A program made the position numbers and the translations under genes. 64,000 nucleotides of DNA, taken from IMG/VR virus record IMGVR_UViG_3300045988_157791. One strand, 5' to 3'. Within the stretch, counting starts at the first letter, position 1; each line of letters starts with the position of its first letter. This document shows, piece by piece, positions 47,844-63,999 of this stretch. The notes under the pieces are model-generated. The model was given only the letters and a program-made list of their open reading frames with translations, was not told the DNA's origin and searched no databases. Origin of the DNA: a virus (taxonomy: Duplodnaviria > Heunggongvirae > Uroviricota > Caudoviricetes).

Positions 47844-48172
47844 TGATGCCCGCCAATTGGCGGGCATCTGTTCTCTGTAAAGGTGTCTGGCATCGTCTGG
47901 TTCGTTAACGTTTACTAAACCAATGGTGACAAAAATTAGTTATCTTTGAAAAATAAAGGTTGCATGAAAAGAAGGGGTATGCGTTAATAGCATCGTTGGT
48001 TTGCAAGACAGACCTTATGTAAGCAGTTTTAGTAAAGCAGTCTCAGTTCAGTGTTATCTTCTGATTTCCCTTCTTCGTGAGTCTCCTCCTTAAGTGCCTA
48101 AGTAAGTCCCAATCTATACAGATCAAATTCTCGCCGCACTATGTGGCTCACAAAATTAAGAAGGTAATATCT

Positions 48173-48388
48173 ATGTCTAATAAAATGACTGGTTTAGTAA
48201 AATGGTTTAACTCTGATAAAGGCTTTGGCTTTATTTCTCCTGCTGATGGCAGTAAAGATGTTTTTGTACATTTTTCGGCAATTCAGAGTAATAATTTCCG
48301 CACTTTGGAAGAAGGCCAGCAGGTCGAATTCTCTATCGAGAATGGGGCTAAAGGCCCAGCAGCAGCAAATGTCGTTGCTCTAAGCTGA
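48173..48388 (+). CDS. cold-shock protein (CspA family)
   Basis: [19 protein letters not shown]...[13 protein letters not shown]1/RNP2-like motifs, 71 aa. Confidence 0.85.
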
Positions 48389-48666
48389 TTCAACGCTGAT
48401 GATCCTCATTTCTACAATAACGAAGACGGTGTAAGCCTGAGTGGATAGATTTGCAGGATTGTACAAGTTGAATAAATTAGCATGGTAAGGCCATGCTAAT
48501 TAAATCGACACAACGGCCAGTTTATTCCATAAAAGTGAATTGCCCATTGTGGCGAAATGCGGGGTTGCCGCATGAATAGTCAAAGGCAGAAGCTAACTGC
48601 CGGCATGGCAAAACAAAGTGCGTAAGAGGAGTGACTTCCTCAACAAGCGCCATAATTCTTTATAAA

Positions 48667-62764: not shown

Positions 62765-63319
62765 TTATTTTATTTTATCTTCTTCTAAACGAGAAAATTT
62801 AAATTGTTTATCGGTGATGGTGAGTAGTGTTACACCTTCCTTTTCGTGTAAAAAACCGGCACCGTTTGACACCATAATCAATCTATCCTTCCCTCGAAAG
62901 ATTTCATAATATTTACCACCTCCACAAGTTTTAGTTTCAATACAGTCCATGCCAGATACTGCTTCTCTGTTAAAAATACGATCTTTTGTAGCAACGGGTT
63001 TTCCGTACTCCTTTGTCAGCATTTCACTTATCTGGATGAATGTATACTTACCAACATTACTGGTTAATGACATTTCGACTTTTCCGTCGATCAGATTGCC
63101 ATTCGTATGCGGTTCTTTTTCAGTCGGGGTATTTTTATCTTGAAGAACAAACACTTCAACATTTTGTGTTAGCTTCTTGAATTGGGCTTTATAATTTTGT
63201 TCAAGTTCACTTTTATCTTTGCCTATTAACGTTAATTCATCTATTTCAGATTCGTTACACCCTGTTAGCGTTAACGCAATTATTAGAGATGCGAAAATAT
63301 TGAGATGGCACTTCTTCAT
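62765..63319 (-). CDS. lipoprotein (AT-rich, 184 aa)
   Basis: Signal peptide with lipobox LTGC. Confidence 0.5.
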   Translation of the reverse strand: MKKCHLNIFASLIIALTLTGCNESEIDELTLIGKDKSELEQNYKAQFKKLTQNVEVFVLQDKNTPTEKEPHTNGNLIDGKVEMSLTSNVGKYTFIQISEMLTKEYGKPVATKDRIFNREAVSGMDCIETKTCGGGKYYEIFRGKDRLIMVSNGAGFLHEKEGVTLLTITDKQFKFSRLEEDKIK

Positions 63320-63437
63320 TAATTTGTCTCCATGTTTAACTGCTGCGATCTAATCAGGAACATGAAGGCAGTCTAACGCTGCCTCTGATCAAAGCGATAA
63401 AACGATACGTGAATATAACTAAGTGTCAACAAAACAA

Positions 63438-63462
63438 AAAAGGGGCCGAAGCCCCTTTGAAT
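63438..63462. terminator. bidirectional hairpin terminator
   Basis: AGGGGCcgaaGCCCCT flanked by A-run and T-run. Confidence 0.6.
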
Positions 63463-63532
63463 TTTGCGCTGAAAAAAGTGTTGCTAGGATGTTAGCAAGC
63501 TATGGTTAAGAACGTCTGCCGTAATTGTCTAT

Positions 63533-63610
63533 CACAGCGTTGAGCGGTCTGGTTTATGTTAGCGGAGTCTTAATCTGGTTGATTAAAAGGCCAAACCGCT
63601 CAACGCTGTG
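63533..63610. other. perfect 16-bp inverted repeat enclosing a 46-nt loop, abutting the 3' end of tRNA-Ser
   Basis: CACAGCGTTGAGCGGT ... ACCGCTCAACGCTGTG. Confidence 0.5.
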
Positions 63611-63612
63611 TC

Positions 63613-63699
63613 TGGCGGAGAGTAATGGAATCGAACCATCATCGCTTGCGCAATGGGACGGTTTTCAAGACCGCTTGAGCACCATGCTCCCTACTCTCC
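63613..63699 (-). tRNA. tRNA-Ser (anticodon UGA), class II with long variable arm
   Basis: Folded by hand: 7-bp acceptor GGAGAGT/ACTCTCC, anticodon loop CUUGAAA, variable arm CATTGC-GCAA-GCGATG, T-loop GGTTCGATTCC, 3' GCCA; D-arm atypical. Confidence 0.6.
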
Positions 63700-63923
63700 G
63701 GCCGTTGTGGTGGCCGGTACTGAATCTCCGGCATACGGTGCAGCCAATTAGGACTACGGACGATCACCGCTCGCGAAAGGGAAGATTTGCGGCCGCATTT
63801 CCCTAACATCCAAGAAAGCTATCGCATCAGTCTGCGAATCCACCACAACGGTAAGATCACTACCTTTCGACCAGTCATTGTGCACATGAACGACGATTAA
63901 CCGTAATGATCTTATCGTTGTAT

Positions 63924-63999
63924 TGGTGCCGGTTAGCGGACTCGAACCGCTGACATCCTGCTTACAAGGCAGGCGCTCTACCAACTGAGCTAAACCGGC
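63924..63999 (-). tRNA. tRNA-Thr (anticodon UGU)
   Basis: Folded by hand: acceptor GCCGGTT/AACCGGC, D-arm GCTCAGTTGGTAGAGC, anticodon loop CUUGUAA, T-arm AGCGGTTCGAGTCCGCT, discriminator A plus CCA. Confidence 0.7.

Follow-up and report, generated by a model that had tools for sequence, protein, structure and literature searches.

What lies between two tRNA genes at the end of a 64,000-nt stretch of Caudoviricetes DNA (IMG/VR record IMGVR_UViG_3300045988_157791; the whole stretch is hereafter called the window)? A first reading made from the letters alone (the original prediction) had folded tRNA-Ser(UGA) and tRNA-Thr(UGU) by hand, had noticed a 12-nt inverted pair in the spacer between them and a perfect 16-bp inverted repeat beside tRNA-Ser, and had left a choice among additional atypical tRNAs, processing signals and a small non-coding RNA (ncRNA). 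The last of these options is the one that our analysis bears out. The spacer (63700-63923) is one copy of a family of structured RNAs, supported by covariation and lying on the strand of the tRNAs, and, judged from sequence comparison, this spacer element is an unannotated branch, distantly related to the functionally orphan prophage small RNA (sRNA) STnc100.

A sequence search identified the last 600 bases of the window as belonging to a P1-like phage-plasmid, with Escherichia phage CMS-2020a (99.6%) and ~110-kb non-mobilizable E. coli plasmids (100%) as the closest records, followed by P7, D6 and Cyrano. ARAGORN called exactly two tRNAs at this end, the same two that had been folded by hand, both on the minus strand, and the P1 and P7 records place the region inside the C1-repressor-controlled ban operon; the RNA sense is therefore the minus strand. 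The CMS-2020a tRNA array extends upstream with tRNA-Asn and tRNA-Tyr. Comparison of these phages revealed that the gap from tRNA-Thr to tRNA-Ser measures 8 nt in Cyrano, 224 nt in the window and CMS-2020a, and ~450-470 nt in P7 and D6. The spacer is thus an insertion or deletion of repeatable units, with none in Cyrano, one in the window, two in tandem in P7 and D6, and at least four in classic P1 (NC_005856), where they lie between trnT and tciA. The P1 record instead places two coding sequences (CDSs) over the array, plp (a putative lipoprotein) and upl, which run against the direction of the ban operon. These CDSs span 69472-70041 of the record (L285 1473-2042) in an array that follows trnT, the 3' end of which is overlapped by plp, and both are probably mis-annotations over RNA units.

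The 12-nt inverted pair is perfect and real, although the positions first given for it (63703 and 63842) were off by 1-2 nt: the arms of this repeat (I4) occupy 63702-63713 and 63840-63851, with 126 nt between them. The 16-bp repeat is equally genuine and extends to 20 nt at 95% (63533-63552/63591-63610), beginning 2 nt past the 3' end of tRNA-Ser. A third repeat that had escaped the original prediction (I1; 24 nt, 83%, 63840-63863/63903-63926) takes in one of the 12-nt arms, in competition with the perfect pair. By simple arithmetic rather than a program, ~0.0015 perfect 12-mer inverted pairs are expected by chance in 224 nt, and a 16-mer is far rarer; when folding was compared with shuffles, the spacer on the tRNA strand gave z = -2.3 and the trailer beyond tRNA-Ser gave z = -7.7. 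The spacer had been called poor in open reading frames (ORFs), which holds only loosely, as mechanical ORFs of 37-93 amino acids are present, yet these overlap the tRNAs.

The proposal of additional atypical tRNAs found no support. ARAGORN in default, intron and mitochondrial modes returned tRNA-Ser and tRNA-Thr only, while relaxed thresholds of 70-80% produced scattered, mutually overlapping calls on both strands, such that no mode gave a credible tRNA in 63700-63923; Rfam likewise gave no tRNA-clan match there, even at E<=10. More broadly, Rfam 15 yielded no family for the window unit at gathering threshold or at E<=10, and 18 related loci searched at gathering threshold returned only tRNAs; Y RNA, transfer-messenger RNA (tmRNA), C4, ribozymes and riboswitches were therefore rejected.

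Minimum free energy (MFE) folding of the 224-nt spacer on the minus strand produced a long 5' hairpin, which we term module A, followed by a closed scaffold. Throughout the family the scaffold consists of a closing stem of 7-9 bp (12 bp in the window) drawn around two short hairpins, Pa and Pb, with an insert between them. As Pb is stacked on the closing stem and the insert lies between the two hairpins, the topology resembles a cloverleaf in which the anticodon arm has been replaced by the insert. The branch consensus reads GUUGUGGUGAAU-GCGC-AGGCUGAU-GCGC ... GCCGG-AGAUCAGCA-CCGGC-CACCACAAC, and the window copy carries its conserved blocks, the closing-stem, Pa and Pb helices and complementary loops (ACUGA/UCAGU), differing from the consensus at few positions with all helices kept. 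The 3' strand of the closing stem stops just 2 nt (63700-63701) short of where tRNA-Ser begins. The apex of module A is structured and lineage-specific, and is 77-79% identical to Klebsiella phages (H39/H40). The insert of the window is a version common to Klebsiella phage BUCT_49532, and in a consensus fold with that phage and P7 eight pairs over the whole module are kept via two-sided changes, mostly in the insert. Across the family, inserts come in unrelated versions that are freely recombined with different versions of module A, and measure 30-180 nt (median 80) among the first 123 units, later scans bringing the minimum down to 6 nt. 'Mini' units that have no insert occur in Klebsiella P1-like plasmids and in P1/P7, scoring 39.5 and 31.8 bits with a scaffold covariance model. 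This model, built from a spliced alignment, finds the insert-free mini units but mishandles large inserts and misses the STnc100 of phage 933W, and was therefore excluded from the statistics.

The 12-nt repeat is conserved in relatives, a test that had been set for it at the outset, with arms that are kept and covary across hundreds of these. To quantify pairing, 113 distinct scaffolds were spliced free of their inserts and aligned (alignment A1, in which the window copy is the first row). This revealed that 95.3% of cells pair, with two-sided changes in 15 of 23 pairs and in 87 cells; none of 500 shuffles reached these values, and sliding the partners by 1-3 columns left only 27-53% pairing. 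A genome scan that fixed only the 5' strand of the closing stem and the Pa loop provided a built-in control for pairing of the Pa stem, since the stem itself was left free. In this unbiased scan, chance matches that had no 3' block formed 0-2 of the four Pa pairs, while matches with an independent 3' block formed 3-4. Eight compensated Pa stems were recovered, namely GCGU/ACGC, UCCC/GGGA, GCGA/UCGC, GCAC/GUGC, ACGC/GCGU, GCCC/GGGC, GCGG/CCGC and GUGC/GCAC. The stem of module A (at least 12 of 14 pairs) formed in 127 of 175 distinct units versus 9 of 175 with a shuffled strand, by means of many unrelated stem sequences. Cells with G-U outnumbered those with A-C by 108 to 24 (4.5:1), and the sense strand folded better in 107 of 169 copies (p = 3e-8); structure has therefore been selected on the tRNA strand, indicating RNA.

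In the family as a whole, the loops of Pa (AG-GCUGAU) and Pb (AG-AUCAGC-A) are complementary over 5-6 nt. Covariation between them was weak in the first data set alone (3/5 vs 22/139), and it took scans directed at variants of the Pa loop to make it convincing. In these, a U-to-C change in the Pa loop was always accompanied by A-to-G in the Pb loop (four loci, two lineages), while C-to-U in the Pa loop, seen three times, gave wobble pairs with the Pb loop. In the window, a G-to-A loop change is matched by C-to-U. These results support a loop-loop kiss, though they do not prove it. The sequence immediately 5' of module A is also conserved in its pairing potential: it is complementary to the first 6-7 nt of the closing stem (5' strand), with 6-7 of the 7 positions able to pair in 94 of 105 distinct units, and varies together with that segment (CACAUG/CAUGUG, CACACA/UGUGUG, CACAUC/GAUGUG, CACACG/CGUGUG and CACAAU/AUUGUG). 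In some lineages this flank is a better complement of the segment than the 3' strand of the closing stem itself. The competing helix could be a functional switch or a by-product of tandem arrays.

The family extends well beyond P1-like phages. Distant blastn searches recovered the scaffold from unrelated phages at ~75% identity, always in non-coding DNA, and an exact scan located a 27-nt core in at least 120 viral contigs. By blastn, 160 phage records and 1023 of 5426 complete E. coli genomes carry the core; among the matches listed, no annotated feature lay beneath it in these genomes and the scaffold was nowhere annotated as RNA. By our own reading of family assignments, the 160 phage records include lambdoids (HK633, mEp460, HK629, CUS-3 and Stx2 phages), 46-50-kb siphoviruses, ~157-kb Klebsiella phages, 72-73-kb E. 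coli podoviruses and one Aeromonas phage. Oxalobacteraceae, Marinobacterium and Aeromonas joined the Enterobacterales when genomes dereplicated by species were scanned. Good scaffold copies were also observed on contigs labelled Acidobacteriota, Geobacteraceae, Chitinophagales and Martelella (L173, L164, L193 and L163/L179), which may reflect contamination or mis-binning by enterobacterial phage DNA, or a truly wider spread.

Three genomic contexts recur. In the first viral scan, 27 of 124 oriented loci had a tRNA within 1.5 kb, all of them on the strand of the element; the other 97 loci lay far from any tRNA. Units within arrays are packed 0-5 nt from tRNA ends, with 2-5 nt to the following tRNA. 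In lambdoid prophages the element has the Q antiterminator gene on one side and the holin/lysis genes on the other, a slot known to hold tRNAs in P22-like phages (PMC8022706). The third context is directly downstream of a cI-type repressor gene, as seen in some Stx2 and CPS-53-like prophages (L283, Stx2a_WGPS2 2501-2636; L015), where the unit is 3' of the repressor gene and on its strand, as lysogen-expressed genes typically are. The element is missing from E. coli K-12 CPS-53, where the neighbouring genes are those of one prophage context. Some prophage copies have a sigma70-like promoter of their own immediately upstream and a terminator ~30 nt downstream. At L059, L088 and L100 a promoter-like TTGACA...TACATT site lies directly upstream of the scaffold, ~90 nt before the core, with no 5' hairpin module; the inverted repeat on either side of this site (ATGTAGGATAACCAACAT/ATGTTGGATATCCTACAT) resembles a repressor operator. 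Sub-threshold matches to isrJ (RF01393; 30-33 bits against a threshold of 37) adjoin units at L022 6563-6616, L124 2674-2747 and L128 5620-5671, over segments that contain terminators, and other small RNA modules may share these arrays.

We consider it somewhat better than an even bet that the spacer is a modular ncRNA unit that is co-transcribed with the tRNAs, excised by tRNA-processing enzymes and equipped with an insert that acts in trans. The unit and both tRNAs would share the repressor-controlled promoter that is annotated upstream in P1 and P7; the 5' end of the unit would be set by 3' maturation of tRNA-Thr, and its 3' end by RNase P, cleaving where tRNA-Ser begins 2 nt further on. 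The compact kissing-loop scaffold may then act as a nuclease-resistant support on which the variable domain is displayed, and this domain would act in trans on a partner that differs between lineages, either protein or RNA. Several points weigh against this proposal. We infer both the processing route and the action in trans; no antisense target above chance was found in the other 63 kb of the window, where the longest match was 13 nt against ~12.4 expected, and the unit, carrying no terminator, does not qualify as a classical Hfq sRNA. CRISPR interference knock-down over the P1 array region (plp, upl and trnT) produced no plaque phenotype (PMC10695390). The search patterns fixed the 5' half of most aligned copies and, together with the splicing out of inserts, inflate the conservation of the 5' strand of the closing stem and of the Pa loop. 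Three uncompensated loop variants also occur, C-to-A in two lineages and G-to-U at one locus. Finally, as the 5' flank competes for GUUGUG and covaries with it, the closed scaffold may be one of two states.

A rival explanation is a cis-acting processing or punctuation element, in which the long 5' hairpin (19-20 bp with its flank) and the 20-bp trailer hairpin would be RNase III-type entry sites and the tRNA-shaped scaffold would recruit RNase P. All of these would act only to separate and mature the neighbouring tRNAs and the downstream mRNA, and the excised piece would have no role. The tight packing against tRNA ends, the long perfect stems on both sides of tRNA-Ser and the position of the lambdoid slot between the late promoter region and the lysis genes (PMC8022706) fit such an element. 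We nevertheless judge it unlikely, as in Cyrano both tRNAs are matured with only 8 nt and no unit between them, other units have their own promoter and terminator or lie far from any tRNA, and a simple cleavage signal leaves the conserved kissing-loop scaffold and the structured, covarying inserts unexplained. A conformational switch, in which GUUGUG pairs with either the CACAAC flank or the downstream CACCACAAC and thereby regulates read-through, processing or stability of the sequence beyond, draws on the presence of both pairings (I1 and I4) in the window and on the fact that both partners follow changes in the shared segment, the flank being the better complement in several lineages. No ligand, protein or terminator/anti-terminator logic is evident, however, the next element in the window is a tRNA rather than an expression platform, and the doubled CACAAC is perhaps a by-product of tandem arrays, in which the 3' strand is the flank of the next unit (P7); regulation of this kind seems quite improbable to us.

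It is also conceivable, but very unlikely, that the feature operates at the DNA level as a small non-autonomous mobile element or a recombination hotspot, with inverted repeats that work in DNA and an RNA structure that is incidental. The variation from none through one and two to at least four units at one site (Cyrano, window, P7 and D6, P1, respectively) would be explained, as would the CACAAC-like direct repeats that flank the unit, one copy of which (ACACAAU) is present at the empty Cyrano site, and the separation of freely reshuffled variable modules by conserved cores. On this explanation it is hard to see why the orientation is always that of the tRNAs, why G-U so exceeds A-C and the sense strand has the folding advantage, or why compensatory changes on both sides are found within short internal hairpins and from loop to loop; moreover, relatives are expressed as RNA (PMC5331693) and no transposase or recombinase is linked. 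The notion that the units are degenerate or atypical tRNA genes, or the opposite-strand protein genes annotated in P1, strikes us as extremely improbable. The scaffold does have a cloverleaf-like topology, hairpin apices of some relatives carry canonical T-arm sequences such as GGUUCGAUUCC, and the plp and upl annotations cover the P1 array, yet neither ARAGORN nor Rfam produced a credible tRNA, and the antisense ORFs are broken by indels between relatives and overlap tRNAs. The Pb loop of 9-10 nt (AGAUCAGCA/AGAUUCAGUA) differs from the 7-nt T loop (UUCRANY), an insert of 30-180 nt takes the place of the anticodon arm, and there is no CCA end, the 3' tail being CC followed by the next tRNA.

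The proposal of an excised, trans-acting unit can be extended to a bolder one, which we regard as rather doubtful: the units would constitute a large overlooked class of phage RNA, comprising a self-contained, tRNA-shaped kissing-loop scaffold, employed by phages of many families as an exchangeable carrier and processed by the host tRNA machinery, together with rapidly swapped effector domains and a two-state switch driven by the flank. If so, the effectors might be decoys or inhibitors of host defences, tRNA-directed or other, or determinants of specificity between phages in competition; STnc100/PasD would be one annotated twig of the class, and the plp and upl 'genes' of P1 would be mis-annotated RNA units. 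The element is in any case common, being found in about one fifth of complete E. coli genomes, in diverse phages, in P1 and in Stx2 phages, yet it sometimes lies beneath spurious CDSs. Its recognition connects the orphan STnc100/PasD with phage tRNA arrays and with a far larger set whose architecture is defined and backed by covariation, and provides a structural model (closing stem, kissing hairpins, exchangeable insert and competing flank) that is open to mutagenesis in the tractable P1. An Rfam-type model would improve the annotation of phages and prophages and remove false protein predictions.

The coordinates of the unit and of its neighbours in the window are collected in the table below.

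Table. Features of the tRNA region at the end of the window, in order of transcription.
Feature	Position	Strand	Basis and remarks
tRNA-Thr(UGU)	63924-63999	-	ARAGORN; Rfam tRNA 76.5 bits; precedes the element in the transcript
5' flank AUACAAC (family consensus CACAAC)	63917-63923	-	Sequence; repeat I1; can pair with GUUGU of the closing stem, which would lengthen the 5' hairpin
Module A, long hairpin with 12-13 bp stem (63903-63914/63852-63863)	63852-63914	-	MFE fold
Closing stem P1, 5' strand CCGUUGUGGUGG	63840-63851	-	Repeat I4; covariation in alignment A1
Hairpin Pa, UCGC-AGACUGAU-GCGA	63822-63837	-	Fold; 4/4 stem pairs covary
Pa loop bases ACUGA	63827-63831	-	Complementary to Pb loop
Variable domain, hairpins 63778-63804 and 63735-63770	63735-63804	-	Consensus fold with Klebsiella phage BUCT_49532 and P7
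Hairpin Pb, GCCGG-AGAUUCAGUA-CCGGC	63713-63732	-	Fold; 5/5 stem pairs covary; adjoins 3' strand of closing stem P1
Pb loop bases UCAGU	63719-63723	-	Complementary to Pa loop
Closing stem P1, 3' strand CCACCACAACGG	63702-63713	-	Repeat I4; covariation
tRNA-Ser(UGA)	63613-63699	-	ARAGORN; directly downstream of the element
Trailer hairpin, 20-bp stem with variable apex	63533-63610	-	Fold; inverted repeat; 2 nt after tRNA-Ser
Intrinsic terminator AAAGGGGC-UUCG-GCCCCUUU followed by UUUGUUUUG	63439-63458	-	Terminator scan; fold; ends the tRNA transcription unit

Downstream of the unit, tRNA-Ser(UGA) fell short of the gathering score of the Rfam tRNA model and within the clan matched tRNA-Sec best (46.6 bits against a threshold of 47), and in the D6 record its amino acid was not called by tRNAscan-SE; it may be a structurally unusual type II tRNA. 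The trailer repeat was found to be conserved in five aligned relatives but invariant: the stem is identical and the apex variable in E. coli and Klebsiella P1-like elements, and the trailer therefore offers no covariation evidence. By eye only, its ends (CACAGC-GUUGAG...CUCAAC-GCUGUG) resemble those of P7 module A (ACAAC-GUUGAG...CUCAAC-GUUGUG). The terminator lies 240 nt beyond the scaffold, and we infer that 63431-63612, encompassing the trailer hairpin and the terminator, is the 3' external spacer of the tRNA transcript. The trailer hairpin and the long 5' hairpin are possible processing signals, another of the options that had been raised for this region; the trailer may instead give rise to a stable 3'-derived RNA.

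Further observations concern the surroundings. Right after the terminator, at 63402-63429 (-), a promoter-like sequence (TTGACA, 16 nt, TATCGT) is placed to drive a 184-amino-acid ORF (62765-63319, -) with a lipoprotein-like N-terminus. In phage Cyrano (L004 3093-3305) the 'hypothetical protein' CDS CYRAN_40, which runs antisense over tRNA-Ser and the trailer hairpin and has the mechanical ORF 63525-63806 (+) as its counterpart in the window, is likely spurious. Upstream of the tRNAs, the P1 record notes a 'dicF-like region' in the leader of the ban operon (L285 792-893; P1 68791-68892), and the operon thus has an unusual concentration of RNA genes in its 5' part. Elsewhere in the window, a full-length match to the cspA thermoregulator (RF01766, 185.7 bits) at 47995-48413 (+) indicates, at the level of sequence, a putative cold-shock protein gene with a temperature-sensing 5' untranslated region on the phage-plasmid.

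How does the unit compare with RNAs already described? No paper turned up when the literature was searched for the core sequences. With tRNAs and tRNA-like RNAs such as YrlA it shares a four-way, cloverleaf-like topology, a 5-bp hairpin on the closing stem, side loops that touch and a home in tRNA arrays, but it fails the tRNA, YrlA and tmRNA models, and its loops kiss by Watson-Crick pairing without the T-loop/D-loop elbow. The stable RNAs C and D of phage T4 (species 1 and 2) are also small, co-transcribed and processed with phage tRNAs, and of unknown function; they are a likeness only, and no T4-type phage was among the blastn matches listed. Integron attC sites, CRISPR-like repeats, retrons, the hammerhead ribozyme (considered for the CUGAUG in the Pa loop) and the phi29 packaging RNA (pRNA) were rejected, as their consensus sequences do not fit and no associated genes or Rfam matches were seen. 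GOLLD and ROOL are structured phage and prophage RNAs of unknown function that occur near tRNA islands, and GOLLD has conserved domains parted by a variable linker able to hold tRNAs (PMC12286853). However, they are 500-800+ nt long, form homo-oligomeric cages and are unrelated in sequence and structure to the branch units of ~130-220 nt (224 nt in the window), and their Rfam models matched nothing in the window or in the 18 related loci.

The closest likeness is to the lambdoid/Stx prophage sRNA STnc100 (RF02076), which has no known function (PMC9029176, PMC12370729) and copies of which are expressed in enterohaemorrhagic E. coli (EHEC; PMC5331693, PMC12370729): 11 copies were seen by RNA-seq in EHEC EDL933, one of them also by Northern blot (PMC5331693). 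The Hfq-associated sRNA PasD of enteropathogenic E. coli is reportedly related to it in structure (bioRxiv 10.64898/2026.05.13.724894). The Pas sRNAs, at ~84 nt and with terminators of their own, are a different object from the unit, although PasD is reportedly related to STnc100. Comparison of the Rfam consensus and structure line of STnc100 with alignment A1 revealed a common plan, in which a closing stem (UGGUG/CACCA) leads into AAU and a first short hairpin, after which come a variable interior and a CCGG-type hairpin that directly adjoins the 3' strand of the stem, and the two occupy the same genomic slot in the phage late operon near tRNAs and lysis genes. They differ in detail. The hairpins of STnc100 are CCCCC-UGUGCG-GAGGG and CCGGG-AGGCA-CCCGG, whereas those of the branch are GCGC-AGGCUGAU-GCGC and GCCGG-AGAUCAGCA-CCGGC with complementary loops; most branch units, unlike STnc100, have the extra 5' hairpin module and the CACAAC flank; STnc100 ends in its own intrinsic terminator (model positions ~170-206), whereas the window unit has none and is embedded between tRNAs; and the branch, unlike STnc100, reaches virulent phages and non-enteric hosts. 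The STnc100 of phage 933W, just after stx2B, scores 207.7 bits with the Rfam model, and the window unit gave no match to that model at E<=10. Scores below the 47-bit gathering threshold were obtained for the fourth unit of P1 (33.9 bits) and the second unit of L046 (30.1 bits), and L046 contains a hybrid unit in which the flank, module A and GUUGUGGUGAAU of the branch are joined to a 3' half of STnc100 type. Given this hybrid, the shared plan and the sub-threshold scores, we treat STnc100 and the branch as one superfamily, within which the family described here would be a sister branch of the prophage sRNA STnc100/PasD.

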